Translations under genes and position numbers: made by a program
The notes under the pieces: generated by a model
The model's input: only the letters and a program-made list of their open reading frames with translations
Databases searched by the model: none
Told to the model about the DNA's origin: nothing
In this document: in pieces, positions 38 to 54,745 of the stretch
Numbering within the stretch: position 1 is the first letter of the stretch
Layout: each line of letters starts with the position of its first letter
Assembly: GCA_902787305.1 (NCBI GenBank)
Contig: CADAFS010000005.1
Coordinates: forward strand, 1 to 63,575
Direction of reading: 5' to 3'
Source of the DNA: an uncultured Pseudomonadota bacterium
GTDB taxonomy: Bacteria; Pseudomonadota; Alphaproteobacteria; Rs-D84
DNA: 63,575 nucleotides

Positions 38-97
38 TGAATGTGTTTTGCGAAAATAAGTGTTTTTTATACTTGACTTTGTACACATTTACTAACA
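38..97 (+). repeat. about 60-bp repeat, copy 1 (partner 13745..13806, inverted)
   Basis: gaatgtgttttgcgaaaataagtgttttttatacttgactttgtacacatttactaacac matches the reverse complement of 13745-13806 at about 90% by eye. Confidence 0.8.
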
Positions 98-110
98 CTT
101 TCACTTACAC
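91..110 (-). repeat. TAGTG-type array (G-strand on minus)
   Basis: Plus strand reads actaacactttcacttacac. Upstream of the + CDS at 197. Confidence 0.7.
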
Positions 111-196
111 CAATTAAAGACAAAACACAACCGCTTGACAAAACACGAATTTTTGGTTAAAATATATAACATAAACATAACCAAAAGGGTCCAAAC

Positions 197-907
197 ATGA
201 AAAAAACAGACAAAACCTTATTCCTTGCGGCGTTAATGGCAATTGCCACCGCATGCAAAAAGGAACCAATTCCCGATGTCGCCACATCCAAACAAACACC
301 ATCAATGGCACCAAATGACACAATTCCACACGTCCCCATGGACCCGGGCGAACCGGCCACAATGTTGACGGCGGACCAAAAGGCGACCATTACATGGAAT
401 TGGTATAATTGGATTATGTACAATGATTTTATAAATTCGGACACAATTGAATACTATGCCAATCGCCATAATATTGATCGGATTACATTGATGCCGGATA
501 CGAATTCTTTTCAATCAAACGTCATAACTTGCACCTACTATACACCCTATGATTTTCATCGCGCACGTGATACAATTGGCAAATACTGGGACATATTGGA
601 ACAATACGGCAAAACAGTAAATGCGGGTAACGCAATAATATATGTGAACAAATACACTGGTGCGCATTTACCACATAACGGTTATGAACCATATGGCATG
701 TCATTGGAAGACAGCGTTTGGTACACCAGCAAGGGTTATCGTGTTATGCGGGGTGATTTTAATTATAAATCTGGAGATACAAATACACAGCATAAATACA
801 AATCACAACTGGACAGCGTTCGTCCCGCCCTTTACAAAAAACAGATGCAGCAATTTGATACCGCAAAATATAATCGGCGCCATCAAAACTTGTATAAGGG
901 CAGATAG
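197..907 (+). CDS. hypothetical lipoprotein
   Basis: N-terminal signal peptide with lipobox-like LMAIATAC. GC hairpin downstream at 941-958. No family recognised. Confidence 0.55.
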   Translation: MKKTDKTLFLAALMAIATACKKEPIPDVATSKQTPSMAPNDTIPHVPMDPGEPATMLTADQKATITWNWYNWIMYNDFINSDTIEYYANRHNIDRITLMPDTNSFQSNVITCTYYTPYDFHRARDTIGKYWDILEQYGKTVNAGNAIIYVNKYTGAHLPHNGYEPYGMSLEDSVWYTSKGYRVMRGDFNYKSGDTNTQHKYKSQLDSVRPALYKKQMQQFDTAKYNRRHQNLYKGR

Positions 908-960
908 GTTTCACGCCCAAAGTTTAATATTCAAACAAACGCGGGGCTTTTGCCCCGCGT

Positions 961-1020
961 ACTAACACTAACCCCTGCCTCGCTGTAGCGATAGCGAAAG
1001 CGGGACTAACACTAACCACC
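961..1020 (-). repeat. array - GC hairpin - array module (G-strand on minus)
   Basis: actaacactaac + ccctgcctcgctgtagcgatagcgaaagcggg + actaacactaaccacc. Upstream of acpS. Confidence 0.7.
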
Positions 1021-1105
1021 CAAAAAAAATTTCATTTTCTGCTTGCACGAATCGGAAAAAAGTTTCTATATTCCGATATCAAATTTACAAAAGGGAGGAA
1101 ACCTT

Positions 1106-1483
1106 ATGATTGTTGGCATCGGCATTGATTTGGTCGAATCGGGACGTTTTCTTGATTGGTCCGCGTTCAAAAAACAACGCATTTTTACAAAAAAAGAACT
1201 TGAATACGCGGATGCCGACAACGCAAACGCGGAAAAACATCTTGCAAATTTCTGGGCCGCGCGTGAGGCATGCCTTAAGGCCCTTGGGACCGGGTTCGGC
1301 GATGATATTGCATTTTCCGACATATCGGTCGTGCATGACGACAACGGCCATCCAGAAATTATGATTGCCGGCGGCGCACGCAACGCACTAAAAGAACTTG
1401 CCGGAATGACGGCGGCGGTTCACCTTTCTATATCGGACCAGGATAATTTTTCCGTCGCAATGGTCGTGATTGAAAAGCAATAA
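1106..1483 (+). CDS. acpS: holo-[acyl-carrier-protein] synthase
   Basis: Begins MIVGIGIDLVE, typical of AcpS, and has the FAAREACLKALGTG-like motif. AGGGAGG RBS lies 7 nt upstream of the ATG at 1106. The ORF-track start at 1043 is probably too early. Confidence 0.85.
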   Translation: MIVGIGIDLVESGRFLDWSAFKKQRIFTKKELEYADADNANAEKHLANFWAAREACLKALGTGFGDDIAFSDISVVHDDNGHPEIMIAGGARNALKELAGMTAAVHLSISDQDNFSVAMVVIEKQ

Positions 1484-1554
1484 AGATTTCATATATGTCA
1501 AAGCAAAAAAATATCGCACAAAAATGTGCGATATTTTTATTATCAAACATTTAT

Positions 1555-10060: not shown

Positions 10061-10660
10061 TCAAAATATATCTGTATTTCGCAGATAATAGTAAAGCGTC
10101 GCCCGATTGACACGCAATTTTTTTGCAATTTGGGCTTTACTAAGTCCCATATCAATAAAAGTTATTATTTTTTCTTTGTTTCTGTCAAGTTTCAGATGTT
10201 TTGCTTGTATTCCAACCGGCCGCCCAAGTTTTTTACCCTTGGCCTTTAATCGCGCAAGGCTTTCGCGCACGCGTTCTTTTAATAATGACCGCGACAGTTC
10301 CGCCGACAACCCAAACGCAAACGCCAAAACCTTGGATTGTATATCCGCACCCAAACGAAAATTTTCTTTCAGTGTCCAAACCTGGCAATTTCGTTCAAGA
10401 CACATTTGTAAAATCCCCATAACCTCTAACAACGACCGCCCAAGACGCGAAATTTCTGTGGTGATTAAAATATCACCGTCTTTTAATTCTGTCAGCAACG
10501 CTCCCAATTTACGATCTTGCAATCTTTTCCCACTTGAAATTGTTTCTTCGACCCAAGAATCAATAACGATATTATTTCGTTTTGCAAAATTTTCGATGAC
10601 ATAGTGTTGATTTTCCCTGGTTTGATGGCTGGTTGAAACACGACAATACCCATAAATCAT
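10061..10660 (-). CDS. small serine recombinase (resolvase/invertase family, Hin/Gin-like)
   Basis: Begins MIYGYCRVSTSHQ (catalytic Ser context YxRVST.Q). Also has GD.L......RLGRS and a C-terminal HTH (LSKAQIAKKLRVNRATLYYYL). AAGGGAG RBS precedes the ATG at 10660. Confidence 0.85.
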   Translation of the reverse strand: MIYGYCRVSTSHQTRENQHYVIENFAKRNNIVIDSWVEETISSGKRLQDRKLGALLTELKDGDILITTEISRLGRSLLEVMGILQMCLERNCQVWTLKENFRLGADIQSKVLAFAFGLSAELSRSLLKERVRESLARLKAKGKKLGRPVGIQAKHLKLDRNKEKIITFIDMGLSKAQIAKKLRVNRATLYYYLRNTDIF

Positions 10661-10762
10661 GATAACTCCCTTTGGTGCTTTTGTTATAAAAAAAGGCACC
10701 TGAAAAAAATTTCAGCGCCCATGTTTCGCGGTTGAATATAGTAGATTTTTCCCTAATTTCAA

Positions 10763-10795
10763 GTGTTGAAAAAAACCTAGGTTTTTAGTCAACAC
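10763..10795. promoter_or_regulatory. hix-like palindromic recombination site (left)
   Basis: GTGTTGAAAAAAACCTAGGTTTTTAGTCAACAC is an imperfect palindrome. Its AAACC-TA-GGTTT core resembles the crossover sites of Hin/Gin-type invertases, as I recall them. Confidence 0.6.
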
Positions 10796-10871
10796 TTTTT
10801 TTCAAAAAATCAAAATTTTTATTTTGTGTAAAATCAATAACTTACAAATTTCCAAATTTTGGCCGAACAAG

Positions 10872-10900
10872 GTGTCAAAAAACCTAGGTTTTTTTAACAT
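10872..10900. promoter_or_regulatory. hix-like palindromic recombination site (right)
   Basis: GTGTCAAAAAACCTAGGTTTTTTTAACAT has the same core. The CCTAGG centres (10776-10781 and 10883-10888) are 107 bp apart. I saw CCTAGG nowhere else in the window. Confidence 0.6.
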
Positions 10901-10961
10901 AACATCGTGCCTTAAAAGGAATGGCCTTTTAAGAGTTTAACGTTAAACCAAGGAGAAAAAA

Positions 10962-12737
10962 ATGTTAAGACAATCAAAAACAACAATCAAAGAATTGTCT
11001 GCGCAATACCGCAGTGTATTGAAACGGGCATTCTTGGCGGGTGTTATTGCACTAACGACATCGGTCGCCACCGCAAATACAGATGTAACATTTGCGGGTG
11101 ATTATACAGATAATAGCGGAACAACACAAAATGTTGCAAACGGCGCACCGGGTGCCCAAAACTTTACATACGACGGGACAAATGCAAATGGAACCGCAAA
11201 TGAAGGTATAAGTTCAAACACCACGACCGGTGTTAGCCAGGCTAACTTTGCATATACCTTGGCCGATGGAACAACAGAAACACTTGAATCAGGCAATACA
11301 TATACCGCCGGTGATTATACCGCAAGTACAGTTGCAGGAACGACCGGATACGAAAATGTATCTGTTGCCGATGGATACGGCCTTAGTGCCGGGACGACGG
11401 TGGTTGATTCCGCATATAGTTATGAAAATCCGCAATACGATGAAAATATAGAAGGCAGTCAACAATATATAACATTGGACAGTAATGCCGGCGCACGCGC
11501 ATTGACCGCAGATTATGCAACAGATCCAGCATATACCAGTGGTTCAACAACCATTACCAATGCAACAACCGCCGAAGATTTAATCGGTCTGTATTCATAT
11601 CAAGCCGGGGAAGGGCACAGATATGTTCTGTCCGCAGACGGCACGGGTGTAAGAGATCTTGATAATGATGGTCAAGGTGTTGACCTTGATAACCCAGCCA
11701 TAGATCCGGATTTAAAAACGGCATTACAGGGAATGCTTGATGCGTATGCAAATGACAGTGGTGCAAACCTGACCGCGGCCACCAACGCATTAAATGGTAT
11801 GCAGGACGCGGAAAACGCAAACTATGCTGCAGCATTGGGTGCATATAATGCAGATACCGCAGCCCAAGAAACATTGGCAACAAATTTTGCCACATATACC
11901 ACGGCAACCAACGCATACGAAACAGCAACCAACGCGGATAGTAATTATCAACAAGCGTTGGACAACTTTAATGCAAACACTGCAATGTTCGATGCGGCAT
12001 CCGATGTTTATAACGCACCAATCGAATCAACAATCGATGATCGCGCACAAACGGTCGCCGAAGCCGTTGTTGCCGACGAAGCATCCGCACGTGAATCGGC
12101 AGATGCCGATTTGCAAGACGCGATCGATAACGAAGCATCCACACGTGCCGACGAAGATGCGGCCATCCGTTCTGAATTCGCAGATGCCGATGATGCGGTT
12201 CGCGGTGAATTCGCGGCGGCCGATGCCGATTTGCAAGACGCGATCGATAACGAAGCATCCGCGCGCGCCGACGAAGACACGGCTATCCGTTCTGAATTTG
12301 CAGATGCCGATGATGCGGTTCGCAGTGAATTCGCGGCGGCGGATGCCGATTTGCGAGACGCGATCGATAACGAAGTTGCACGTGCAACCGCCCAAGAACA
12401 GGCAATTCGTAACGACTTTGCGGCGGGCGACGCGGCAACATTGGCACGGGCAAACGCCTATACCGACCAAAGGGTAGATACGCTTGAAAAGAACGTGTCC
12501 GGGGGTGTTGCGGCGGCAACCGCATTGTCATCGGTTGCGGTGTCCAACGTAAAACGTGGCGAAGTTTCTGTCGGTGCCGGATACGGTTATTACAATGACC
12601 AATCCGCCGTTGCGTTTGGTGCCGCGATGGGGCTTACCGATCGTTGGTCTGTTAACGCGGGTGCCGGTTTGGCAACGGGTGACAAAACCCAGATGTCTTT
12701 CCGTGCCGGAACAAATTACAAGTTTAAATTGTTCTAA
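10962..12737 (+). CDS. trimeric autotransporter adhesin (YadA-like C-terminal anchor)
   Basis: Extended autotransporter-type signal peptide (MLRQSKTTIKELSAQYRSVLKRAFLAGVIALTTSVATA). Thr/Gly/Asn-rich passenger with 40-aa tandem repeats. C-terminus VAAATALSS...VSVGAGYGYY..QSAVAFGA....RWSVNAGAG........FRAGTNYKF matches a YadA-type anchor. Confidence 0.8.
   Translation: MLRQSKTTIKELSAQYRSVLKRAFLAGVIALTTSVATANTDVTFAGDYTDNSGTTQNVANGAPGAQNFTYDGTNANGTANEGISSNTTTGVSQANFAYTLADGTTETLESGNTYTAGDYTASTVAGTTGYENVSVADGYGLSAGTTVVDSAYSYENPQYDENIEGSQQYITLDSNAGARALTADYATDPAYTSGSTTITNATTAEDLIGLYSYQAGEGHRYVLSADGTGVRDLDNDGQGVDLDNPAIDPDLKTALQGMLDAYANDSGANLTAATNALNGMQDAENANYAAALGAYNADTAAQETLATNFATYTTATNAYETATNADSNYQQALDNFNANTAMFDAASDVYNAPIESTIDDRAQTVAEAVVADEASARESADADLQDAIDNEASTRADEDAAIRSEFADADDAVRGEFAAADADLQDAIDNEASARADEDTAIRSEFADADDAVRSEFAAADADLRDAIDNEVARATAQEQAIRNDFAAGDAATLARANAYTDQRVDTLEKNVSGGVAAATALSSVAVSNVKRGEVSVGAGYGYYNDQSAVAFGAAMGLTDRWSVNAGAGLATGDKTQMSFRAGTNYKFKLF
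12099..12378 (+). repeat. 120-bp tandem repeat (about 2.3 copies) inside the adhesin gene
   Basis: gatgccgatttgcaagacgcgatcgataacgaagcatcc recurs at 12102, 12222 and 12342 with an exact 120-bp period. Each unit encodes ADADLQDAIDNEAS.RADED.AIRSEFADADDAVR.EFAA. Confidence 0.9.
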
Positions 12738-12791: not shown

Positions 12792-12979
12792 ATAATTTGT
12801 TATCTAAGATTTTTGCCCGTCTCCATTTGCATTACAAACCTGGCCGCGGCACTGTCCGCCTACGCTGGTGCTTAATTTTGGTTAATGAATTATGCGTCTT
12901 TGATGAATTATTTTCGATATACGTGCGCGCTACGGCGAGACACTCAAATTTCTTAATTCGCAAAACGAATAACGAAATT

Positions 12980-13056
12980 TGGTGGATGAGACTGGACTCG
13001 AACCAGCGACCCCCACGATGTGAACGTGATGCTCTAACCAACTGAGCTACTCATCC
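12980..13056 (-). tRNA. tRNA-Val (anticodon CAC)
   Basis: Hand-folded cloverleaf: acceptor GGATGAG/CTCATCC, anticodon loop TTCACAT, T-loop GGTTCGAGTCC, encoded CCA. Confidence 0.9.
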
Positions 13057-13130
13057 AAAACTTTTTTCAGTTCCCCTCCTGTGGAGGGGTGGCGCCGAAC
13101 AGCGACGGGGTGGTCTTGTTGCCCGTCTTC
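13057..13130. repeat. tRNA-spacer repeat with CCCCTCC-TGT-GGAGGGG hairpin (copy 1)
   Basis: cttttt(t)(c)agttcccctcctgtggaggggtggc...ggtggtcttg/cctgcccgtct recurs at 13452-13520. Confidence 0.8.
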
Positions 13131-13234
13131 GTTTGCGCTGCAAACTCCGCCGTGGCATCCGTCTCCACTTCGTTACGCCGAGACTTCGCTGAATTTTTTT
13201 AATCGTGCGCACCGCGCGCGATAACAAAAATTCG

Positions 13235-13321
13235 TGGTGGGGATAGTGGGACTTGAACCCACACGGTCGCAATGACCAAAGGATTTTAAGTCCTCAGCGT
13301 CTACCATTCCGCCATATCCCC
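13235..13321 (-). tRNA. tRNA-Leu (anticodon TAA)
   Basis: Acceptor GGGGATA/TATCCCC, anticodon loop CTTAAAA, long variable arm, T-loop GGTTCAAGTCC, encoded CCA. Confidence 0.9.
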
Positions 13322-13375
13322 GGACCCTTTATTTTAATCATGCGGCGTTTTGCGCCGCGCGATAATAAAAATTTG

Positions 13376-13451
13376 TGGTGGAGCTGATGGGACTCAAACC
13401 CACGACCTCTACGATGCGAACGTAGCGCTCTATCAACTGAGCTACAACCCC
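13376..13451 (-). tRNA. tRNA-Ala (anticodon CGC)
   Basis: Acceptor GGGGTTG/CAGCTCC with the G3:U70 Ala identity pair, anticodon loop TTCGCAT, encoded CCA. Confidence 0.9.
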
Positions 13452-13520
13452 AAAACTTTTTAGTTCCCCTCCTGTGGAGGGGTGGCCGAAGGCCAGGGTG
13501 GTCTTCCTGCCCGTCTACGT
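13452..13520. repeat. tRNA-spacer repeat with CCCCTCC-TGT-GGAGGGG hairpin (copy 2)
   Basis: Same sequence family as 13057-13130. In addition, the about 40-bp tRNA 3' flank cactcaaatttcttaattc.caaa.cgaataacgaaattt occurs at both 12941-12979 and 13546-13585. Confidence 0.8.
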
Positions 13521-13585
13521 GCGCGTTGCGCACTCCGCCGCGGCACTCAAATTTCTTAATTCACAAAGCGAATAACGAAATTTGG

Positions 13586-13670: not shown

Positions 13671-13725
13671 AATGCGCCCCCATGATACACCACTTTTACG
13701 CACATTGCAACAAGAAAATGAAAAA

Positions 13726-13755
13726 GTGTTAGTGCAAGTGAGTAGTGGTTAGTAA
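13726..13755 (+). repeat. TAGTG-type array
   Basis: gtgttagtgcaagtgagtagtggttagtaa. Upstream of the minus-strand tRNA cluster. Confidence 0.75.
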
Positions 13756-13806
13756 ATGTGCATAAAGTCAAGTATAAAAAATACTTATTTTTGTAAAACA
13801 CATTTA
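13745..13806 (-). repeat. about 60-bp repeat, copy 2, flanked by a 19-bp inverted repeat
   Basis: gtagtggttagtaaatgtg (13743-13761) and cacatttactaaccactac (13799-13817) are perfect complements around the core. Confidence 0.8.
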
Positions 13807-13813
13807 CTAACCA

Positions 13814-14572
13814 CTACATCACCGTTCCCTGGGCTGGGTAAAAAGTAAGCTGAATTTCACGCCACATTTTGTATTCTTCGCGCGGCAACATGTCCAGGGG
13901 TTGACACGCGTTTATTGCATTACGTATTGTATCCAACACATACGCAAACGCCGGGTCGCGTTCCGCCGCCGATGCCCCTTCGAACCACACATTTGCAACC
14001 GTCCCGTTTGTCCGCATCGTTAAATGTGCCACCGCACGAATCCCCGAAATATCGGGCCGCGACGTATCAATCACCCAACAGCGCGTCATTTTATACCGCA
14101 ACGCGTCAATAATCGAAATGGCAAGCCCCGTATGCAGCGATGTCGTATTCCGATTCACACGAATAACCGTCTTTTTCACGGTCGCCGGTTTATCGTCGGG
14201 CTTTTCATCTTTTGGTTTATTTTCCCGTTTCTCTTCGGGTTTTTCTTCGGGAATCACGGTCGGTGTTTCGATTTTTTGTTCGGTTTTCAGCGCGGCATCT
14301 TGTTCCGGTGTTGGCTTTATTTCCGGCTCTTTTACCGGTTCTTTTTCTTCATTTTTGTCCGGCACCGTTGTATTATATAAAACAGATTCTTCGCCGGTAA
14401 TTTTCACCTGGGACAAATCAATCATCATAATCTGAACCCGGTCGGGCGCAACAAAACGTTCGCGTTCGCCAATCACCACACCCGCAATAAAAACCAACAC
14501 GCACACCGCCCCCAAATGCCCCAAAACCGAAAGGCCGATATTTTCAGATGTAAAATGATTGAACCGCACCAT
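13814..14572 (-). CDS. tolA: TolA-like protein
   Basis: N-terminal TM, Pro/Glu/Lys-rich linker (EKEPVKEPEIKPTPE...KPEEKRENKPKDEKPDDKP) and a C-terminal globular domain. Sits directly downstream of tolQ-tolR. Confidence 0.7.
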   Translation of the reverse strand: MVRFNHFTSENIGLSVLGHLGAVCVLVFIAGVVIGERERFVAPDRVQIMMIDLSQVKITGEESVLYNTTVPDKNEEKEPVKEPEIKPTPEQDAALKTEQKIETPTVIPEEKPEEKRENKPKDEKPDDKPATVKKTVIRVNRNTTSLHTGLAISIIDALRYKMTRCWVIDTSRPDISGIRAVAHLTMRTNGTVANVWFEGASAAERDPAFAYVLDTIRNAINACQPLDMLPREEYKMWREIQLTFYPAQGTVM

Positions 14573-22241: not shown

Positions 22242-22245
22242 GGAA

Positions 22246-22380: not shown

Positions 22381-22419
22381 TGCATTTTTGTGGGGCCCGG
22401 TACCGCGGGGTGTGGTTCC

Positions 22420-22448: not shown

Positions 22449-22463
22449 TTTCTAATTTTCCCC

Positions 22464-22515: not shown

Positions 22516-24474
22516 ATGAAAAAAATTCTATTTTTCTTAATTCTTTTCCATGCAAGCGCAGGCACCGGTCACGCACTTACCTGTGTTCCAAAAACGGGTA
22601 ACACCCCTAGTGACAACAGATACTTGAAATACTGGGGTGGTGTGCTTGAAACATACCTGCAATGCGGTGGTTCTGGCGGCGGTTTTCACATATGCAAAAA
22701 TGGCGTTGTTGTTGAAGGATGGGACGGAAATTTGCATAAATGCACACAACAAGGTTGGAAAACTGTTAATGATATACAAAACTGCGATGGTGTGTTAGAA
22801 AAAATAGAACAAGACTATGGTGGTTTATCAAATCTTAGTACATTGTTCGCAAACAAATCTCACAACTCGCAATGGTTGTATTACTATAATACAGATGAAG
22901 CAAACGGTTATACTGCAATTAAAAATTATTGCAAATATGATTATAATGAATTTGAAAAACAACTTGCCAAATGCACCGGCGATTTTTTGCATTGGAATGA
23001 TGACGATACGGTCACATTGTGCGATGCCTCCGCGGCATCTTCATCCACAGAATCCGCACCACAACAATCCACAAAACTAGCGCGAACATCCAAAGAAATC
23101 AATTGTAAAAATACGGGTGGCGATAGGTACGATGCAAAAAATGATTTATGTGTATGTAACGCGGAAGAAAAACACCTAACCCAAACCACCGAACAAGGTT
23201 ACAGTATCTGTCGTTGTATGGATGGATACAAACGCAACAATGAAAACAATAGCGCAACCGGCGAATGTGTCTATGCGCCGGAAATAAAAACCCAAATTAA
23301 ACGGGACGACATGGCTATGCAGCGCGATGCCGAAGACGCATATCGCAATGAATACGATAATGCACAAAGCCTTGCGAATAAAGGTACAACCGCACTTTCC
23401 ACACTTGCGACGGGCGAGGGCGCAATGATGGCCGCGCGCGCGATTGCCGAAAAAATCGCCGATGATGATGCCGAAGAAAAAATGTCCGAATATATTACGA
23501 CAATGAAATGCGAATATGGTGGTGGGCAATCGGTGAACCTTGGGGACACGGAAACATTGCCGGGCGGAAATGAACTGACCAACTATTACGCCGAATACAA
23601 ACAATTGGCGGATAAATTAAAGGCAACCAAGGCCGCACTAAACCTGCGCCCCGGAATTGAAGCAGAGGTTTTATACGACCGCGCCGAAACAGGTCTTTAT
23701 CAATACGCCAACGCCGAACGGCAAAGCGGCGGATTTACATCACTTTCGCGCGCGTTAATGAACCCCGAAGGTGCGGACGCCGAACAATGGAACGCACAAC
23801 GCGCCGAAACAAACCGTGATTTATTGATCGGGGGCACACTTGCCACCGTCGGGCTTGCCGGATCATATATCGCCAACCGCGCAATCAACAAAGACCATGT
23901 AAAAAAGTATAAAGAATTGGAAGAGAAGTTTAATAAAATTGAACAAGAACTTTTAAACAAATATCCGGAAGCATTCGTTCCAGAAGAAATACCTGTTAAA
24001 CCATCAATAGAAGAACCGATTATAGATACTATTGATGAAATAGACCCGATAATTGAACAAACACAACCGGCCCCTCAACTTGATTTTAAACCTTTCTCTG
24101 ACAAGTATCTGTTTGCCTCTGGCTCATATAAACTAAAAAGCAACGTTGCCGCATTAGATGACTATATACAAGGATTAATTACCACTCTTAATAAACCCGA
24201 ATATGCAGATTTTAAGATATGTATTAAAATAGATGGTCATACCGATAGAGTTCCACCCGCGCCCGGCTTTATGTCCAACCAGGAATTGTCACAAAAACGC
24301 GCAGACAGTGTGAAAGATTATATGGAACCCAAATTGAATTCGATTACTAATCATATTTCAAACATGGTTGCAACTGGATATGGGGACAAAAAGTGTACAG
24401 AAGATAAATACGAAAAAATAGACGATGACAATTGTCGTAGGATAGATATAACAATAGAAGCATGCGGTAACTAA
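22516..24474 (+). CDS. envelope protein with C-terminal OmpA/MotB-like peptidoglycan-binding domain
   Basis: Signal peptide, Cys-rich N-terminal part, TM (LLIGGTLATVGLAGSYIA). C-terminus has IDGHTDRV....SNQELSQKRADSVKDYM...GYGD. Confidence 0.7.
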   Translation: MKKILFFLILFHASAGTGHALTCVPKTGNTPSDNRYLKYWGGVLETYLQCGGSGGGFHICKNGVVVEGWDGNLHKCTQQGWKTVNDIQNCDGVLEKIEQDYGGLSNLSTLFANKSHNSQWLYYYNTDEANGYTAIKNYCKYDYNEFEKQLAKCTGDFLHWNDDDTVTLCDASAASSSTESAPQQSTKLARTSKEINCKNTGGDRYDAKNDLCVCNAEEKHLTQTTEQGYSICRCMDGYKRNNENNSATGECVYAPEIKTQIKRDDMAMQRDAEDAYRNEYDNAQSLANKGTTALSTLATGEGAMMAARAIAEKIADDDAEEKMSEYITTMKCEYGGGQSVNLGDTETLPGGNELTNYYAEYKQLADKLKATKAALNLRPGIEAEVLYDRAETGLYQYANAERQSGGFTSLSRALMNPEGADAEQWNAQRAETNRDLLIGGTLATVGLAGSYIANRAINKDHVKKYKELEEKFNKIEQELLNKYPEAFVPEEIPVKPSIEEPIIDTIDEIDPIIEQTQPAPQLDFKPFSDKYLFASGSYKLKSNVAALDDYIQGLITTLNKPEYADFKICIKIDGHTDRVPPAPGFMSNQELSQKRADSVKDYMEPKLNSITNHISNMVATGYGDKKCTEDKYEKIDDDNCRRIDITIEACGN

Positions 24475-24484
24475 CTGCCTGTTT

Positions 24485-25989: not shown

Positions 25990-28719
25990 ATGAATAAAAT
26001 TCTAATTTTATGCGCAATTATTGGGCCGATTGCTGGCACACCCGCATATTCTGCGGTGCGTGACGCTTCGTCAATTGCACGCACAACCGGCACAGCCACC
26101 GCACGTACTACCGCCACACCACGCGCAACCGCACCACAAAATTCCGTACCAAACGCACGCGCCACACGCAATACCGCCGTCCGCGCCGGCACACTTAGGT
26201 TGGATTCCGCACCACGCACAGCCACAAATACACGCACCCGCGTCATTAGCACCGAAACCCCGGCAAATCCGCGGCGCACGGTACAAATAGGTCGTGCCAC
26301 AATCGCCGGCACCCCAAGTGCCGATATTATGGAAACCCGCACCGGCGCAGAATATGCGCGTTGCAAAACAGCATACTTTCAATGCATGGACCAATTTTGC
26401 CAATTAAAAAATGATGACTATCGCCGCTGTTCGTGCAGTTCGCGAATTTACGATTTAATGTCCACGCGCCAAAACATAATTGATACAAATAACAAAATCA
26501 CAGAATTCACCGAAAATCTTGATGCGGTCGGCCTTAGCGCGGCCCAGGCGACGGCGATGCACACCGCGTCCGACGGCGAAAACGCGCTTGCCGCGGACAC
26601 ATCCGCATCTAAGGCATTACTTACCGCAATCATGAATTCTATCCGTGGTGGTGACACAACTGTCGGCGGCGCAATGTCCGATTTAAACAGCATAAATTTA
26701 TCGTTCGACACGGTGAATATGTTCGGCCTTACCGACACAGCCGCGGTTATCGCATCATATAACGGCACGGAACTTTACAACGCGGTGTATCCGTCATGTC
26801 GCAATATCGTTGCCGCCGATTGCAACAATGCATCACTGCAACGCGCGGTGACGGCATACCTTATGGCCATTGAACAAGATTGCAACACGGTGCAAACCGC
26901 ACTTGAATCAAAACAAAAAGATTTACGCGCCGCCGTGCGCGAAAGCGGGGCGATGTTGGACCTTGCACGCATTGAAAACCGCAACAAGCACAATTCGGAT
27001 AATATGGCAACCTGTATCGGGAATGTAGAGGCCGCCGTCCTTAGCGAGGAAGTTTGCGGTGCAAATTACCATAAATGTCTTGATAACGGCGAATTCATAG
27101 ATGTGACGACCGGCGCGCCAATTGCCGGCGTGGCACGATTCTATGAATTGCAAGACATATTAAAATTCAACCCGAACAAAGACAACATCGATCAAAAATT
27201 GGCCCAGAATCCTGACAATCGTAATTTTGTTAAAAATTTTGAAAGCAAAACAAAAAAATTCGCGGAACCCGCACTTGATAAATGCACTGAAATCGCGGAT
27301 ACGGTTTGGGCGGAATACCTGGACAAGGCACTGCTTGATATATACTATGCCCAAAAGTCCAAGGTTCAAACGATTAAAACCGGGTGTCTTGATTTTATTT
27401 CAAGTTGTTATGATGACCGCGAAACGGCAATAACCGCGGCGATGGCGGAACTTATCGACGGGACAACCGAAATATCACTTTTGCCGGACAAAATCGTCCT
27501 TACCCGCGAAATGTGTAATAACTATATTGAATCTTGCAACAATATGTTTGATAACACCAATATAATTGCGGAATATATTGACCACCAAACCGATACCGAT
27601 ACAACCGCGGCATGTCGCGCCGTGGTGCAACAATGCTTTGACAGTTTCGGCGGTGCAAATTATGAAAACTTTTATTATCCCAGCAGTGGTCTGTTTCAAC
27701 CAGGCGTGGTTGATGATTTAGTATCAAACCACAATACCCCGGAAACGGAAAAACGCATATCGGCACTTGATTGGTTCACGCTTTATGAATATGACGTAAC
27801 CGGCGAACGAAAACCGGGCTATGTTTCCAAATGCGCACAACGCGTTGCCGAAATCCCAAGCTGCGCAGACAAGGTTGAATTAGTATTCGGTGGTCTGGAT
27901 GCCATAATTGCCGATAGATCACTTGACACATATGGTCAATATGTATATGGCGACCCGATAAATCATCATGATGCATACGGATATGGTTGGGCAAAATTGG
28001 ATGATGGGATGACAACAATTCCATGGAATGCCCCAAATTATAAATTCAAAAATCGCCGCTTACGCCCGACCGGTGTTGCGACCGAGGTTTATAACCAGAT
28101 TATCGACAACCTGATTACCCAATGCATGAACGTCGAAGGCAAATTCATCGAAGCACAATTTGTGGATCATAGAAGGTATGGCACAGATACACAGCACGAG
28201 TTATGCAAAATTAAAACTCCAAATACATTAAGTCCTGACTATTGTCATGTAGACAATAACACCGACCCCAACATCGGAAAATTATGCAGATGTTATGGTT
28301 TAATTGGAAGTTTTGGTACTATTCCCGGCATGTCACAGCCGTCTCCGGTTGATTTTGAATATGTTTGTCCAAAAGATTACAATTTAACCACGGATACCGA
28401 TGCATGGGGTGTGTGTTCTTGTTGGGAAAACGGCGGCCGCCGAAGCCAAAAGGGACACAGCACCAAATGTATGGCTATTTTACCGGTATCTTCTGATCTT
28501 GCCTTCACAGATTGTACAGAAAGCATGACAATCAACTTGTTAGATTCGGGGGAGATTAACTATTATTCGCAATGGTGTAATGCACCCGTAGATCCAATAA
28601 CCAATAAGGTAATACCGATATTAAAACCGTACATTTATACAGGAACAGAAATTGACTGTAGAACATTAATGGAATCCGGTGACATAATCGTTCCCGACGG
28701 CATTACACGATATAACTAA
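25990..28719 (+). CDS. large secreted Cys-rich protein (paralogue family with 59897..60835)
   Basis: Signal peptide MNKILILCAIIGPIAGTPAYSA, an Arg/Thr/Ala-rich stretch, then C...Y..CMD.FC......Y.RC.CS.R and many paired Cys over about 750 aa. Confidence 0.65.
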   Translation: MNKILILCAIIGPIAGTPAYSAVRDASSIARTTGTATARTTATPRATAPQNSVPNARATRNTAVRAGTLRLDSAPRTATNTRTRVISTETPANPRRTVQIGRATIAGTPSADIMETRTGAEYARCKTAYFQCMDQFCQLKNDDYRRCSCSSRIYDLMSTRQNIIDTNNKITEFTENLDAVGLSAAQATAMHTASDGENALAADTSASKALLTAIMNSIRGGDTTVGGAMSDLNSINLSFDTVNMFGLTDTAAVIASYNGTELYNAVYPSCRNIVAADCNNASLQRAVTAYLMAIEQDCNTVQTALESKQKDLRAAVRESGAMLDLARIENRNKHNSDNMATCIGNVEAAVLSEEVCGANYHKCLDNGEFIDVTTGAPIAGVARFYELQDILKFNPNKDNIDQKLAQNPDNRNFVKNFESKTKKFAEPALDKCTEIADTVWAEYLDKALLDIYYAQKSKVQTIKTGCLDFISSCYDDRETAITAAMAELIDGTTEISLLPDKIVLTREMCNNYIESCNNMFDNTNIIAEYIDHQTDTDTTAACRAVVQQCFDSFGGANYENFYYPSSGLFQPGVVDDLVSNHNTPETEKRISALDWFTLYEYDVTGERKPGYVSKCAQRVAEIPSCADKVELVFGGLDAIIADRSLDTYGQYVYGDPINHHDAYGYGWAKLDDGMTTIPWNAPNYKFKNRRLRPTGVATEVYNQIIDNLITQCMNVEGKFIEAQFVDHRRYGTDTQHELCKIKTPNTLSPDYCHVDNNTDPNIGKLCRCYGLIGSFGTIPGMSQPSPVDFEYVCPKDYNLTTDTDAWGVCSCWENGGRRSQKGHSTKCMAILPVSSDLAFTDCTESMTINLLDSGEINYYSQWCNAPVDPITNKVIPILKPYIYTGTEIDCRTLMESGDIIVPDGITRYN

Positions 28720-34647: not shown

Positions 34648-34678
34648 AAAACACCGCCCATCCGGGCGGTGTTATTTG
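34648..34678 (+). terminator. rho-independent terminator after rpiB
   Basis: acaccgccc-atcc-gggcggtgt followed by tatttgg. Confidence 0.7.
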
Positions 34679-35560: not shown

Positions 35561-35592
35561 AAAAAACTAGAAACCGCCAATTCTGGCGGTTT
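35561..35592 (-). terminator. rho-independent terminator after leuS
   Basis: Minus-sense aaaccgcc-agaatt-ggcggttt followed by ctagtttttt. Confidence 0.7.
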
Positions 35593-35621
35593 CACTAGCC
35601 ACTAACACTAACCACTTACAC
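35593..35621 (-). repeat. TAGTG-type array overlapping the leuS stop codon
   Basis: Minus-sense gtgTAAgtggttagtgttagtggctagtg. Confidence 0.85.
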
Positions 35622-38024
35622 TTTTCTCACCACAAAATTCACCAATTTTCTTGGCACGACAATGGTTTTGATTATTTCCGCACCATTCAGTTTTGTGGCA
35701 ACCGTATCACGCGCAATTTGTGCCAGATCCCCATCGGTCGCGTTCAAATCGGCAACAAATTCACCAACACGTTTGCCATTTATTGTTATTGCAAAGACGG
35801 CGGTTGTCTGAACCAATTTTGACGCATCAAATGTCGGCCACGGTTCAAAGACCAGCATATCGGTGTGCCCCAATTTTTCCCACATTTCTTCGGTCAAATG
35901 TGGCGCAAACGGATTTAACACCTGAATCAACACTTCATACGCCCGCCGTGGCATTTTCCCGCCCGAAAACGCGTTCAAAAATTCCATCATCGCCGAAATC
36001 GCGGTATTAAATTTCATTCCGTCCAACCGTTCGGTCACATCGGCCACCAGGCGATTTATCAGAATTTCTTGTTCCGCCGTTGGCGCATCGTCGGTTAGAT
36101 TATCACTTGCCGCCTCTACCCGGCGCAGGAAACGTTCAACCCCACGCAATGTATCTTCGGACCAATTCATATTATTCTGTTCCCATGGCGCAAGGTAAAG
36201 TATGGCCAGCCGGCACGCATCCGCGCCCACACGCGCCACCACATCGGACGACGGCACGACATTACCACGCGACTTTGACATTTTTTGCCCATCAGCCCCC
36301 ATAATAAGTCCGTTGCTGGTGCGCTTTTTATATGGCTCCACCCCCGGGACATAGCCCAAATCCGCCAACGCCTTGTACCAAAACCGTGAATAGAGCAAGT
36401 GGCGCGTTGTATGTTCCATTCCACCGTTATAATGATCAACCGGCATCCATTTGTCTAACTGCGCGCGCGAACAAAACTCTTTATCATTCCGCGGGTCAAG
36501 GTAACGCATAAAATACCACGATGACCCCGCCCATTGTGGCATAGTGTCCGTTTCACGACGCGCCGGGCCGCCACAGGCGGGGCAGGTTGTCTTTATCCAA
36601 TCCGTCGCCCGCGCAAGTGGACTTTCGCCGGTATCGGTTGGCTTGTAATCTTCCATATACGGTTGCAACAACGGCAATTCGGATTCAGGTACCGGTTGCC
36701 ACCCGCATTTTTCACAATACACCATCGGAATCGGTTCGCCCCAATACATTTGCCGCGAAAAGCCCCAATCTTTCAGTTTATATTTCTTGGTCCCGCGCGC
36801 AAAACCATGTTCGGTACCATACTTGATAGCGGCGGCAATCGCGGTATCTTTATCCATACCATCAAGGAAAGACGAATTTATATGTGTGCCGTCACCTTCC
36901 CATACTTTATCGGGTTCGCCACCCGAAAGAACCGGAATAATTTCCAACCCGAATTTCTTGGCAAAATCCCAGTCACGCGAATCATGTGCAGGCACCGCCA
37001 TAATCGCACCGAAACCATAGTCCGCCAAAACATAATCTGATATAAAGATTGGAATTTCACGACCATTAAACGGATTTGTTGCCATCACACCATCTAACTT
37101 TACGCCCGTCTTGTCTTTCGTAACATCTGTCCGTTCAATTTCAGATTTTGCCTTTGCCGCGGCGATATAGTCACGTACCGCCCCGGCATTTTTTATTTTG
37201 CCTTCATCCAACCATTTCTTTACCAATTTATGTTCCGGCGCAATAACACAGAACGTCACACCAAATATGGTATCCACGCGCGTGGTATAGACCGTCATAA
37301 TATCGTCACCGACCCGAAAATCCACATCTGCGCCATACGAACGCCCAATCCAATTGATTTGCATGGTTTTAACCTTTTCAGGGTAATCAACCAAAGCCAA
37401 ATCGTCGATTAAACGGTCCGCGTATTTTGTTATCGCCAAATTCCATTGCAATTTCATTTTCTTTTCAACCGGCCCATGACAACGTTCACAAGCCCCATCT
37501 TCCAATTCTTCGTTGGTAAGGTTCGTCTTGCAATTCGGGCACCAATTCATCGGCAATTCAGATTTATATGCCAAACCCGCACGCCAGAATTGAATAAACA
37601 TCCATTGTGTCCATTTGATATATTCCGCATCCGATGTCGCAATTTTTGATTCCGGGTCAAACGAAAGCCCCATAATGGAAATATCTTTTTCAAAGATTTC
37701 AATCAGTTCGGCCACCGAATCCCGTGGATGCTTTCCAATTTTGGTTGCGTATTTTTCAGACGAAATCCCCATAGAATCGTACCCAATCGGGAACAATACA
37801 TCAAATCCACGCATACGTTTATACCGCGCCATAACATCCATCCCCGTGTACGGCAACATATGCCCCACATGCAATCCCGAACCCGACGGAAAGGGAAATT
37901 CAATCAAATTATAGTATTTCGGCTTTGAACCGTCGTTTTTCGGCACAAACGCGCGCGCATCGCGCCATCGCGCCTGCCATTTTTCTTCGCGTTCAATCAC
38001 TTTCTTTATATCATCAGATGCCAT
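35616..38024 (-). CDS. leuS: leucine--tRNA ligase
   Basis: HVGH (GLHVGHMLPYT) and KMSKS (QKMSKSRGN) motifs, CP1 editing domain, 802 aa. Confidence 0.95.
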   Translation of the reverse strand: MASDDIKKVIEREEKWQARWRDARAFVPKNDGSKPKYYNLIEFPFPSGSGLHVGHMLPYTGMDVMARYKRMRGFDVLFPIGYDSMGISSEKYATKIGKHPRDSVAELIEIFEKDISIMGLSFDPESKIATSDAEYIKWTQWMFIQFWRAGLAYKSELPMNWCPNCKTNLTNEELEDGACERCHGPVEKKMKLQWNLAITKYADRLIDDLALVDYPEKVKTMQINWIGRSYGADVDFRVGDDIMTVYTTRVDTIFGVTFCVIAPEHKLVKKWLDEGKIKNAGAVRDYIAAAKAKSEIERTDVTKDKTGVKLDGVMATNPFNGREIPIFISDYVLADYGFGAIMAVPAHDSRDWDFAKKFGLEIIPVLSGGEPDKVWEGDGTHINSSFLDGMDKDTAIAAAIKYGTEHGFARGTKKYKLKDWGFSRQMYWGEPIPMVYCEKCGWQPVPESELPLLQPYMEDYKPTDTGESPLARATDWIKTTCPACGGPARRETDTMPQWAGSSWYFMRYLDPRNDKEFCSRAQLDKWMPVDHYNGGMEHTTRHLLYSRFWYKALADLGYVPGVEPYKKRTSNGLIMGADGQKMSKSRGNVVPSSDVVARVGADACRLAILYLAPWEQNNMNWSEDTLRGVERFLRRVEAASDNLTDDAPTAEQEILINRLVADVTERLDGMKFNTAISAMMEFLNAFSGGKMPRRAYEVLIQVLNPFAPHLTEEMWEKLGHTDMLVFEPWPTFDASKLVQTTAVFAITINGKRVGEFVADLNATDGDLAQIARDTVATKLNGAEIIKTIVVPRKLVNFVVRKV

Positions 38025-39854: not shown

Positions 39855-39884
39855 GTGTTAGTGACGGGTGTAAGTGGATAGTAA
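39855..39884 (+). repeat. TAGTG-type array after rpsI
   Basis: gtgttagtgacgggtgtaagtggatagtaa, 6 nt after the TAA and before the terminator. Confidence 0.8.
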
Positions 39885-39911
39885 AACCGTCGGGAAACCG
39901 ACGGTTTTTTG
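39883..39911 (+). terminator. rho-independent terminator after rpsI
   Basis: aaaccgtcgg-gaa-accgacggttt followed by a T-run. Confidence 0.8.
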
Positions 39912-43788: not shown

Positions 43789-43820
43789 GGTGTAAGTAGA
43801 TAGTGTTAGTTGGTAGTGAC
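43789..43820 (+). repeat. TAGTG-type array upstream of the minus-strand 42568..43599 gene
   Basis: ggtgtaagtagatagtgttagttggtagtgac. Confidence 0.75.
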
Positions 43821-43860
43821 GCACAGTTTTGTATGCACCAGCATATTATTATTGAATCAT

Positions 43861-44150
43861 ATTATGTATAGTTTTATGAGTCCAAAGCGAATAAAACAAT
43901 CTCCATAACACACAGACATATTCGTAGCAACACACGAATTATTATATTATGTTTATAGGTTTATATCATACACCAGCATATAAAACGGATTTCTGCACCA
44001 CAAACTTATAAAACATTTTCCACCCACATTACGTATAGTTTTATCATGCGTCAGCATATAAAACAATTTTCACGACACACAAAAACATTTCCAGAGCCAT
44101 ATTTATGCATAGTTTTATCCATGCATCAGCATATAAAACTATACATAATA
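43861..44150. repeat. four degenerate 74-87-bp tandem units in an AT-rich non-coding region
   Basis: TATAG(T/G)TTTAT at 43867, 43954, 44034 and 44108. Each is followed within about 10-20 bp by (CAGCAT)ATAAAAC, forming GTTTTAT/ATAAAAC inverted repeats. Confidence 0.7.
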
Positions 44151-44283
44151 TATATTATGCGCCTTTTATATATCCACAAAAACACTGTCCCCCGCCATAT
44201 TTTTCATGATTTACAAAAACGCAAATTATTCCGTACAAACATTATATTATTTCCGTACACGAATACGCTTTCTCAACTTCTCG

Positions 44284-44310
44284 CTAACACTAACCACTAA
44301 CACTAATCAC
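44284..44310 (-). repeat. TAGTG-type array after prfA
   Basis: Minus-sense gtgattagtgttagtggttagtgttag, 4 nt after the TAA. Confidence 0.8.
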
Positions 44311-44313
44311 TCT

Positions 44314-53526: not shown

Positions 53527-53603
53527 TGGTCGGGGCGAAAGGATTCGAACCTTCGACACCTTGCTCCCAAAGCAAGTACTCTACCAGACTGAGCTACGCC
53601 CCG
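53527..53603 (-). tRNA. tRNA-Pro (anticodon TGG)
   Basis: Acceptor CGGGGCG/CGCCCCG, anticodon loop TTTGGGA, T-loop GGTTCGAATCC, encoded CCA. Confidence 0.9.
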
Positions 53604-53709
53604 ATGTGCCACAAATTATATATTATTTTTTACTTAACGCAAGTGTTATTTATACCAGTCGTTGACAAATAAATCTTTTTTGTAATAATAACAAAAAAAA
53701 GGAATTCAT

Positions 53710-54120
53710 ATGTCCGAAAATAAAACCCCACGTGTTGGAATTGGTTGTTGGATTTTTAATCCGGCGGGGCAAGTGTTGCTTGGGCGGCGACTTTCAACGC
53801 ATGGTTTTGGCACATGGGCGCCACCGGGCGGTAAACTTGAATTTAACGAAGAACCCGCAGATTGTGCTGCACGTGAACTGCGCGAAGAAACCGGAATAAT
53901 TATCCCCGAAAAAAAATTCCACCTTGTTGGCATCACCAGTGATATTTACCCAGATTCACACTATATCACCCTGCACTATCGCGCGGATGGTATTACGGGT
54001 GAACCAAAACTTATGGAACAGGAAAAATGCGCCGAATGGCGGTGGTTTTCACTTGATAATTTACCAGGTCCGTTGTTTCTTTCGGCACAAAATTTACTGA
54101 AAACACACACCCGAATATAA
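53710..54120 (+). CDS. NUDIX hydrolase
   Basis: Nudix box GGKLEFNEEPADCAARELREETGI. Confidence 0.85.
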   Translation: MSENKTPRVGIGCWIFNPAGQVLLGRRLSTHGFGTWAPPGGKLEFNEEPADCAARELREETGIIIPEKKFHLVGITSDIYPDSHYITLHYRADGITGEPKLMEQEKCAEWRWFSLDNLPGPLFLSAQNLLKTHTRI

Positions 54121-54183
54121 TCCTTTTGATTTTCGGTGTTGGCGCACTATATAATTCACATGGAAACAAGAAAAGGAGAAACC

Positions 54184-54660
54184 ATGAAAAAAACACTTGT
54201 TGCGTATTTTAGTGCAACCGAAACAACGCGTGGACTGGCCGAAGATTTGGCGGCGGCGATTGGTGCCGATTTGTTTGAAATTGTGCCGGCGGAAAAATAC
54301 ACAACCGATGACCTTGATTGGACAAATAAACTAAGCCGCACAACGACGGAAATGAACAACCGCGCGTGTCGCCCAAAAATTGCAAAGAAAACCCCAGACC
54401 TTTCAAAATATGAAACGATTTTTGTCGGTTTTCCGATATGGTGGTATCGCGAACCGTCAATCATCGACACATTTATGGAATCTTATGATTTTGCGAACAA
54501 AACAATTGTTCCATTCGCCACATCCGGGGGCAGTCCGATTGGTGATGCCGGCAAAAATATGCAGAAACTTGCGCCCGACGCACGCGTTGAACGCGGCGCC
54601 CGCCTGGACACCGGCCTTTCGCCGGATGCCCTGCGCGAATGGGCAAAAAAGTGGATGTGA
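54184..54660 (+). CDS. flavodoxin
   Basis: AAAGGAGAA RBS, KTLVAYFSATETT FMN-phosphate loop, WW.Y.EP motif, about 158 aa. Confidence 0.75.
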   Translation: MKKTLVAYFSATETTRGLAEDLAAAIGADLFEIVPAEKYTTDDLDWTNKLSRTTTEMNNRACRPKIAKKTPDLSKYETIFVGFPIWWYREPSIIDTFMESYDFANKTIVPFATSGGSPIGDAGKNMQKLAPDARVERGARLDTGLSPDALREWAKKWM

Positions 54661-54692
54661 GTTAGTGGTTAGTGTAAGTGTTAGTGCTAGTG
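54661..54692 (+). repeat. TAGTG-type array directly after the flavodoxin TGA
   Basis: gttagtggttagtgtaagtgttagtgctagtg, five units with TAG/TAA in all three frames. Confidence 0.85.
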
Positions 54693-54717
54693 AAACGGCG
54701 CAAACGCGCCGTTTTGT
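54693..54717. terminator. bidirectional terminator between flavodoxin and the efflux operon
   Basis: aaacggcgc-aaac-gcgccgtttt. Confidence 0.75.
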
Positions 54718-54725
54718 ATAAAAAA

Positions 54726-54745
54726 CTATCCACTAACCACTACTC
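54726..54745 (-). repeat. TAGTG-type array overlapping the MacB-permease stop
   Basis: Minus-sense gagTAGtggttagtggatag. Confidence 0.8.

Follow-up and report, generated by a model that had tools for sequence, protein, structure and literature searches.

Oriented short tandem arrays at gene boundaries in an uncultured 'Candidatus Enterousia' alphaproteobacterium

Why would short arrays of GTTAGTG-like units lie at the edges of genes, and why would they all point the same way relative to those genes? The question is raised by the 63,575-nt contig CADAFS010000005.1 (GenBank assembly GCA_902787305.1) of an uncultured alphaproteobacterium, analysed here over its whole length (hereafter the window; 44% G+C). 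A first-pass annotation had described some 16 such arrays of 6- and 7-nt units, had not recognised them as a repeat family already described, and had proposed three roles for them. We find that the arrays are a real and well-defined family of oriented repeats, very probably lineage-specific short degenerate tandem repeats of the same kind as the GGGAATC, STRR, and TAACTGA oriented heptamer repeats. The explanation that we consider best as a whole is that of an oriented repeat family acting as an RNA boundary element, to which we assign a probability of roughly 0.35.

The array family, its polarity, and its pairs

When AGTG was counted at 6- or 7-nt spacing, the window yielded 14 runs of at least two units and 8 runs of at least three units, against 1.1 and 0.0 in second-order Markov shuffles, and both strict regular expressions and Tandem Repeats Finder led to the same places. 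Inspection of all intergenic regions by eye and by regular expression gave about 16 arrays between positions 82 and 54745, the number first claimed and clearly non-random by the shuffles, and every one of them (16/16) is intergenic or overlaps a gene end. Inserted hairpins aside, the arrays comprise 3 to 6 units and measure 15 to 33 nt. The common units are TTAGTG, TAAGTG, GTTAGTG, ATTAGTG, and GCTAGTG, that is, a mix of 6- and 7-nt lengths around the core WAGTG. The G/T-rich strand (hereafter the G strand) is almost without C, and its complement (the C strand), which had been described as nearly G-free, indeed holds only about 0–2% G outside two inserted hairpins. The longest G run in the units is GG, and a G-quadruplex was rejected as a candidate structure because the units lack G-runs. 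Arrays were found in about 11 of the window's 46 intergenic regions, so that the earlier statement that they bracket coding units was too strong. An Rfam scan of the window at the gathering threshold returned six tRNAs only and no match to the arrays. Pfam confirmed the gene names acpS, argS, lpxB, rpiB, prfA, flavodoxin, MacB/FtsX permease, and L13. A reassignment of stop codons was considered as the reason for pads of TAG and TAA and was rejected, since TGA ends 7 of 56 genes and the genetic code is therefore standard.

Unit statistics were taken from a strict set of 36 arrays, drawn from the window and from the loci of Enterousia type described below. Five of these arrays have three full units, 12 have four, and 19 have five, which is the maximum. 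Neighbouring units are identical in 2 of 86 cases, where 15.2 ± 3.4 would be expected, and this sevenfold depletion speaks against free microsatellite slippage and in favour of a degenerate array that is maintained. A position-specific consensus, as would be expected if the 36 arrays were degenerate copies of one 30-nt element, was sought and not found; the order of units is free and is unique to each array, with no two alike. The array starts between −36 and +14 nt (mostly −7 to +8) of the stop codon of a long sense open reading frame (ORF) in 23–24 of the 36, and a terminator hairpin directly abuts it in nine cases. Stop codons in all three frames, which had been put forward as a property of the arrays, occur in 17 of the 36 (22 with the trailing partial unit included, and 14 when the C strand is read), a figure that does not stand out from the 16.6 obtained with shuffled units.

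The G strand points away from the nearest gene in all 16 window arrays (binomial p = 3e-5), where 15 of 16 had been reported. Nine arrays lie in sense downstream of a gene (argS, rpsI, rpiB, flavodoxin, lpxB, leuS, prfA, the MacB/FtsX permease, and the coding sequence (CDS) 13814..14572), and the other seven are antisense, upstream of a gene or promoter. By the overall tally, six arrays include a stop codon, among them those at lpxB (TAG), rpiB (TAG), leuS (TAA), the MacB permease (TAG), and CDS 13814..14572 (TAG), and the array abuts the stop codon of argS, prfA, and flavodoxin. The first-pass annotation had listed five genes that take their stop from the array, and four of them (lpxB, rpiB, leuS, and the MacB permease) do so; the fifth, the tolA-like gene 25990..28719, does not, as its TAA stop (28717–28719) lies 24 nt before the array with a terminator stem between the two. 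Arrays behind a stop codon run straight into a GC hairpin followed by a T-run (leuS, rpiB, lpxB, and flavodoxin), while upstream arrays stand just before sigma-70-like promoters (25951–25979, 135–163, and 13710→13682), 25–190 nt from the start. The individual sites are as follows.

82–110, minus strand: array abutting one copy of a 52-nt AT-rich palindrome (40–90), about 25 nt upstream of the −35 box of the promoter of CDS 197..907
135–163: promoter of CDS 197..907, TTGACA-17-TAAAAT
939–960: GC hairpin, terminator of CDS 197..907, whose 3' foot touches the next array
961–1020, minus strand: array split (961–972 and 1006–1020) by a 33-nt insert (973–1005), upstream of acpS (1043..1483)
13723–13755, plus strand: array, left arm of an inverted pair, upstream of the tRNA-cluster promoter (minus strand, 13710→13682, −35 at 13710)
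13754–13805: 52-nt AT-rich palindrome between the two arms, with its other copy at 40–90
13797–13817, minus strand: array, right arm, containing the TAG stop of CDS 13814..14572
22240–22297, plus strand: array 1 nt past the argS TAG stop, interrupted at 22254–22287 by a 34-nt GC-rich hairpin element
22419–22451, minus strand: five-unit array, inward partner of the argS array, ahead of the promoter that serves the OmpA-domain gene 22516..24474
25921–25947, minus strand: four-unit array touching the −35 box of the promoter (25951–25979) of gene 25990..28719
28724–28746: bidirectional terminator hairpin between the tolA-like gene and lpxB
28743–28769, minus strand: four-unit array containing the lpxB TAG stop, just 5' of the terminator on the lpxB mRNA
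34583–34647, plus strand: array containing the rpiB TAG stop, split by a GC hairpin element (34601–34633) and followed by a terminator (34650–34673)
35570–35593, minus strand: leuS intrinsic terminator, ancestral, present in array-less relatives
35593–35624, minus strand: five-unit array containing the leuS TAA stop, inserted between stop and terminator
39855–39885, plus strand: weak three-unit array, 5 nt past the rpsI TAA stop
43790–43818, plus strand: degenerate array, left arm around a 465-nt AT-rich segment (43819–44283)
44284–44313, minus strand: four-unit array abutting the prfA TAA stop, right arm
54662–54692, plus strand: five-unit array 1 nt past the flavodoxin TGA stop, directly 5' of a terminator hairpin (54693–54716)
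54731–54745, minus strand: two-unit array containing the TAG stop of the MacB/FtsX permease

Close pairs of arrays face each other (54662–54692/54731–54745, 13723–13755/13797–13817, 22240–22297/22419–22451, and 43790–43818/44284–44313), and what lies between the arms varies: a bidirectional terminator, the 52-nt palindrome, 120 nt, or 465 nt. The pair 13723–13755/13797–13817 is predicted to fold into a stem of 22 pairs interrupted by a single 1-nt bulge (−35.5 kcal/mol, z −9.2), and for the pair 54662–54692/54731–54745 the predicted outer stem encloses the terminator (−41 kcal/mol, z −7.5). Paired arms are thus predicted to form long outer stems (z −7.5 to −9.2), and arrays with no partner are predicted to remain single-stranded ahead of the terminator hairpin. 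Because the G strand always runs from the gene towards the neighbouring hairpin, two such arrays give a long inverted repeat that encloses the terminator and has the arrays as its outer arms. Across Enterousia-type DNA, opposite-strand neighbours within 200 nt are arranged inward six times and outward never, and at the related loci of this type the G strand points away from the nearest gene boundary in 24 cases against 3 by greedy longest-ORF gene calls, which are crude. The polarity of the arrays is intrinsic, and their pairs are able to form long duplexes.

Origin and spread of the arrays

LeuS places the window among uncultured gut and rumen Alphaproteobacteria of the 'Candidatus Enterousia' lineage, with 97% identity to a metagenome-assembled genome from goat omasum. 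Of 80 related loci that were compared (comparison loci carry L numbers here), only L001–L004, L010, L022, and L051 (the last two from distant lineages) have arrays, and a search of the array-less relatives for other 6/7-nt arrays with different cores found none; judging from these loci, the arrays appear to occur in one sub-clade of 'Ca. Enterousia' only. Array-less relatives have the stop codon directly before the same terminator at leuS, rpiB, lpxB, and prfA, and in array-bearing genomes the array begins at that stop codon (for example, TCATAA AAAAACCGCC becomes TCATAGTGTAAGTG...). Since the array-less relatives keep the stop and the same terminator adjoining, the arrays are derived insertions into the 0–5 nt gap between stop and terminator, and the overlap of arrays with stop codons follows from insertion into that gap.

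Depending on the site, arrays are kept at orthologous positions in 3–5 of 6 array-bearing genomes (the lpxB array, for example, has orthologues in L001, L002, L004, and L010), with the order of units scrambled and the WAGTG core conserved. Orthologous arrays at leuS, rpiB, lpxB, and prfA differ by insertions and deletions of whole units, and presence is mosaic even in close relatives, the rpiB array being missing in L003 and L004, the leuS array in L004, and the lpxB array in L003. The WAGTG core itself is common to hundreds of independent sites, across lineages with about 70% LeuS identity. Conserved synteny blocks break off at the arrays. In L004, one terminator makes up the whole leuS–rpiB junction; in the window and in L001, L002, and L003, inward-facing arrays there enclose accessory genes that differ. 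A Pfam search of the accessory genes between arrays found no transposase, the only matches being a YadA-like adhesin and a serine invertase. Comparison of filled with empty sites gave a single candidate duplication of 5 bp, TCATA at the L010 rpiB array, and no convincing target-site duplication; a duplication of TA would be uninformative, since every unit contains TA.

Arrays of this kind were also found in phages. When viral contigs were scanned with a pattern that included heptamers, 80 loci with 213 distinct arrays were retrieved, on contigs of 37–70% G+C, where by a rough estimate less than one match would be expected by chance, and perfect runs on phage contigs reach 25 units. Statistics of ORF ends without gene calling were dropped for high-GC phage contigs, as the stops in the arrays bias the result, and greedy longest-ORF calls were used instead; by these crude calls the G strand points away from the nearest gene boundary in 141 cases against 25. 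Among opposite-strand neighbours within 200 nt, counted over 31 de-duplicated phage loci, 41 face inward and none outward. Together with the six inward pairs of Enterousia-type DNA, the outward arrangement is therefore never seen (47:0). The siphophage contig L275 (IMGVR_UViG_3300020198_000066, 65% G+C) has 14 arrays in 12 kb, with an array in most of its larger intergenic regions and a hairpin of G-array, loop, and C-array in 5 of the 9 larger ones, the heptamers being GGATAGT, GGCTAGT, and GGTTAGT. By DNA similarity, one phage contig is a siphophage distantly related to phages of Xylella and Xanthomonas, and a second gave no match.

The pattern used to scan metagenomes (AGTGTTAGTG...) favours pure (TTAGTG)n, and most of the 120 loci that it retrieved are microsatellites of unrelated, partly eukaryotic DNA; only L083, L090, L093, L102, L165, L173, and L189 are of Enterousia type. 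In marine metagenome contigs (L082, L087, L098, L155, and L185; 34–36% G+C), (CACTAA)5 lies 4–5 nt before an ATG, with no Shine-Dalgarno sequence. The gene behind it encodes a conserved protein of about 96–129 aa, and the layout resembles that of the TAACTGA repeats before start codons in Beggiatoaceae, which are taken up in the next section.

Several other repeats and elements were noted in and around the arrays. The 34-nt GC-rich hairpin element (CCGTCACGACCGCGGCGCGG..GCCGCGACGG) is present in two copies, 94% identical (22254–22287 and 34601–34633), both inside arrays and right after GTTAGT; a related CCGTC...GACGG has the same position in L004, and other hairpin elements have it in other relatives. 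The two copies of the 52-nt palindrome (AAATGTG...CACATTT; 40–90 and 13754–13805) are 90% identical, form a small hairpin with a T-run, and are flanked by arrays. The AT-rich non-coding segment of 465 nt between inward arrays (43819–44283) contains three to four internal repeats (..TATAGTTTTAT..CAGCATATAAAAC..) and a TATCCACA motif, and is about 80% conserved in L001 and L010. GC-rich mosaic repeats (12850–13560 and 24480–25110), composed of pieces such as CCGTCTTCG, CGCTACGCCGAGAC, and CCCCTCCTGTGGAGGGGTGG, fill the spacers of the tRNA cluster and are also found downstream of lpxB in L001, L010, and L093. ARAGORN calls a second tRNA-Pro(GGG) at 25118–25201 (84 nt, with the anticodon at an odd position), which is absent from the Rfam results. 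A degraded duplicate is one possibility, as the 9-nt repeat ACCCCATGC occurs both there and in the genuine tRNA-Pro (24687–24763).

A gene for a serine recombinase (invertase-like; its homologue in L003 matches Pfam Resolvase) adjoins a gene for an adhesin with a YadA anchor (10061–12737). The 262-nt spacer between the two (10700–10961) has two copies of AAAAAACCTAGGTTTTT about 110 nt apart and may be an invertible promoter switch for the adhesin. The adhesin gene itself contains a 120-nt tandem repeat (12097–12410; 2.3–2.6 copies, 86–93% identical). In L003, the recombinase–adhesin gene pair is located between leuS and rpiB.

Comparison with known repeat kinds

A literature search with the unit strings and with 'Enterousia' returned primers and unrelated papers only. 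Nevertheless, the first-pass annotation was mistaken in taking the repeat kind as undescribed, for the GGGAATC repeats follow the same placement rule (PMC4692102). These GGGAATC and GGGGA(C/T)T heptamer repeats of Xanthomonas and Nostoc are tandem, dispersed, and intergenic (Rehm et al. 2015, PMC4692102). They lie on the non-coding strand just upstream of an ORF or on the coding strand at or just past its stop, and are closest to the 5' neighbour ORF regardless of ORF orientation; the mode is about four units, and sites are common to related species, with length and sequence varying (PMC4692102). Inverted pairs are able to form stem-loops, and the G-tracts form G-quadruplexes in vitro; quadruplex formation was proposed, and no regulatory role could be found (PMC4692102). 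The arrays described here share the placement rule (16/16 in the window, 24 against 3 at related loci, and 141 against 25 in phages), the preference for about four units, and the orthologous sites with varying units. In contrast to the GGGAATC repeats with their G-tracts, they have no GGG or GGGG, and a G-quadruplex is impossible for GTTAGTG or TAAGTG; they also alternate between 6 and 7 nt, and their neighbouring units are seldom identical. The association with intrinsic terminators and the strictly inward pairing are unreported for the GGGAATC repeats. With units that have no G-runs, the window family thus lacks the quadruplex feature of the GGGAATC repeats and shares all else. Since the same placement rule holds with a non-quadruplex unit, quadruplex formation cannot be the general cause of the polarity.

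The STRRs, noted since 1990 and defined in heterocystous cyanobacteria, with CCCCAGT and others as units, are likewise tandem intergenic units of about 7 nt that are capable of forming hairpins (here through a 6/7-nt mix and paired arms), whereas the host here is a gut alphaproteobacterium and the unit is different. For these 7-bp tandem, hairpin-forming repeats, a role in transcript stability or translational coupling has been suggested (PMC2670836). TAACTGA direct repeats, found in marine Beggiatoaceae, cyanobacteria, and Bacteroidetes with a patchy phylogeny, are intergenic and strongly oriented, come in 2–6 copies, and end one to a few nt before the start codon, where they replace the ribosome-binding site; a binding protein is suspected (MacGregor 2015, PMC4679880). 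They share TAAC with the C strand of the window arrays (CACTAAC, equal to TAACCAC), which likewise lies in sense upstream of genes. Whereas the TAACTGA repeats reach the start codon, the upstream arrays of the window precede the −35 box, at 25–190 nt from the start, and most window arrays, unlike the TAACTGA repeats, follow stop codons in the opposite orientation.

REP and BIME elements and miniature inverted-repeat transposable elements (MITEs; for example Correia) are short and extragenic, found at the 3' ends of genes and often in inverted pairs, and can act as terminators or RNA stabilisers. These elements have fixed palindromic or terminal sequences, and MITEs have target duplications, whereas the window arrays are scrambled direct repeats that are palindromic only in pairs. 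No conserved terminal inverted repeats and no near-identical copies were found, the sole elements present in two copies being the inner 52-nt palindrome and one GC hairpin. REP/RAYT systems combine a GC-rich palindrome that has a conserved 5' motif with a gene for a Y1 transposase (RAYT); in the window arrays, GC hairpins are placed after ...GTTAGT. In tandem intrinsic and Rho-dependent terminators (trp t/t'), a C-rich, G-poor tract lies past the intrinsic terminator, and a rut site measures about 60–80 nt. The complement of the window arrays is G-poor and predicted to be single-stranded, as in rut sites, at a length of 15–33 nt against about 60–80 nt. The sites of TRAP are (U/G)AG triplets and those of HutP are UAG-N4, with spacers of 2–4 nt between the triplets; the arrays present UAG or AAG every 6–7 nt in 4–6 copies, at the 3' end as opposed to 5' leaders. 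Integron attC sites were rejected on account of reverse polarity, as the arrays have GTTAGTG beside the gene and CACTAAC at the far end (attC has RYYYAAC near and GTTRRRY far).

What the arrays may do

The function that we tentatively favour is that of a boundary element acting on read-in or read-through RNA, which we hold to be possible and not yet probable. The arrays were very probably inserted at gene edges, either exactly at the stop codon before a pre-existing terminator or between an upstream hairpin and the promoter. In the proposed mechanism, the gene's own mRNA would carry only the G/U-rich arm, single-stranded before the terminator, and a read-through or incoming transcript would gain the G-free, C/A-rich arm in addition. 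That second arm would pair with the G arm into a duplex of 20–40 bp or, alternatively, would serve as an entry site for Rho or another single-strand binder, and in either case less read-in or antisense transcription would get through. The stop codons would be a by-product of the unit sequence and the insertion position. The Rho-loading insulator for incoming transcripts, which was one of the roles first proposed, appears to fit the geometry and the G-free composition, with arrays that are short.

A number of points weigh against this boundary function. Every step of the RNA mechanism is one that we infer from the sequences. The arrays are 25–33 nt long, as compared with about 60–80 nt for rut, and YC dinucleotides are scarce in their hexamers. 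Many arrays stand alone, with no arm to pair with, and an extension of the stem alone does not explain why the G arm always comes 5'. In L051, the array is positioned past the terminator, and phage mRNAs often carry the C strand immediately before a ribosome-binding site, where the loading of Rho would be harmful. As most Enterousia relatives and about three quarters of the window's intergenic regions have no arrays, any function must be dispensable. We would also like to note that the gene calls outside the window are crude longest-ORF calls. A broader version, in which the polarity is a general, unit-independent rule for bacterial and phage heptamer arrays and points to an unrecognised, widespread insulation of transcription units, seems unlikely to us; phages and hosts would then have in common either a conserved multimeric protein that binds single strands or pads at which read-in RNA forms duplexes or admits Rho.

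The main rival, to which we give about equal weight with the boundary function, is that the arrays are non-adaptive simple-sequence repeats, which is possible. The arrays themselves would do nothing; they would arise and turn over by slippage or unequal exchange, and their polarity would come from polar growth at the gene edge or from orientation-dependent tolerance (GTG-rich, structure-prone RNA, for example, might not be tolerated in sense upstream of starts). The patchy phylogeny and the mosaic presence among close relatives agree with this, as do unit insertions and deletions as the chief difference between orthologous arrays, the absence of arrays from most intergenic regions, and the perfect phage runs of up to 25 units. 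Heptamers are the commonest long simple-sequence repeat and slippage was proposed for them, according to Mrazek (2007) as cited in PMC4679880, and for the GGGAATC repeats no regulatory role was found (Rehm et al., PMC4692102). However, free slippage is difficult to reconcile with the sevenfold depletion of adjacent identical units in the Enterousia set and with array lengths limited to 3–5 full units. A WAGTG core held at hundreds of independent sites, in lineages with about 70% LeuS identity, and recurrent insertion into the 0–5 nt gap at the stop of many genes are also not readily accounted for, and no concrete reason is at hand why the opposite orientation would do harm past a stop codon.

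Next in weight, and rather unlikely, comes a platform for a multimeric, sequence-specific protein of the array-bearing lineages that would bind RNA or single-stranded DNA in the manner of TRAP or HutP and modulate termination, 3'-end stability, or translation. Such a protein would be served by 4–6 copies of a conserved 5-nt core with loosely variable spacers of 1–2 nt, by a free order of units around that core, and by the depletion of identical neighbours; arrays without a partner are predicted to offer a single-stranded stretch directly before the terminator, the patchy distribution would follow that of the factor, and a binding protein has been proposed by MacGregor for the TAACTGA repeats (PMC4679880). 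Yet one third of the arrays are antisense before promoters, where a sense transcript is not evident, and the same polarity in the unrelated GGGAATC units would call for different proteins. No candidate protein was identified, no search for a TRAP- or HutP-type protein having been made.

Two of the roles first proposed are poorly supported. In one, the arrays would be the terminal or subterminal inverted repeats of small non-autonomous transposons that insert at the TA of stop codons, single arrays being remnants of internal deletions. What stands of this proposal is the presence of inward arms around variable inserts (the 52-nt palindrome twice, GC hairpins, the 465-nt segment, and accessory genes), to which may be added the leuS–rpiB junction, empty in L004 but occupied in other genomes by differing genes between arrays, the possible TCATA duplication in L010, and the several hairpin elements that lie exactly after ...GTTAGT. 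What does not stand is the fixed end that a transposon should have: there is no master copy or fixed terminus, since no two arrays match in unit order, and the array-flanked terminators have their orthologues in array-less relatives. No transposase was seen, the accessory genes having been searched with Pfam, and the sole recombinase nearby is the serine invertase linked to the adhesin; we consider transposon ends improbable. The other, an all-frame translational stop or ribosome-release pad that would catch read-through or frameshifted ribosomes, is very improbable as a design, for although every common unit contains TAG or TAA, six genes use array stops, and three frames are covered in 22 of 36 arrays when the trailing partial unit is included, the coverage of 17 equals that of shuffled units (16.6), the third of the arrays that are antisense and upstream of promoters need no stops, a single TAA ends the same genes in relatives, and the stop-free GGGAATC repeats show the same polarity (PMC4692102).

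For the oriented heptamer repeats as a group (STRRs from 1990, GGGAATC and TAACTGA repeats from 2015), neither a function nor the cause of the polarity has been established so far. The arrays described here do not constitute a new type of system; what is new is a non-quadruplex member, a comparison with the ancestral state of the sites, and an inward-only asymmetry of 47:0 that reaches many phages. This inward-only pairing (41:0 over the 31 phage loci) is an asymmetry both sharp and open to test. Should read-in transcripts prove to be their target, the arrays would amount to a simple insulator part that can be transferred, and if they are non-adaptive, they would offer a clean case of orientation-dependent tolerance or of polar repeat growth.

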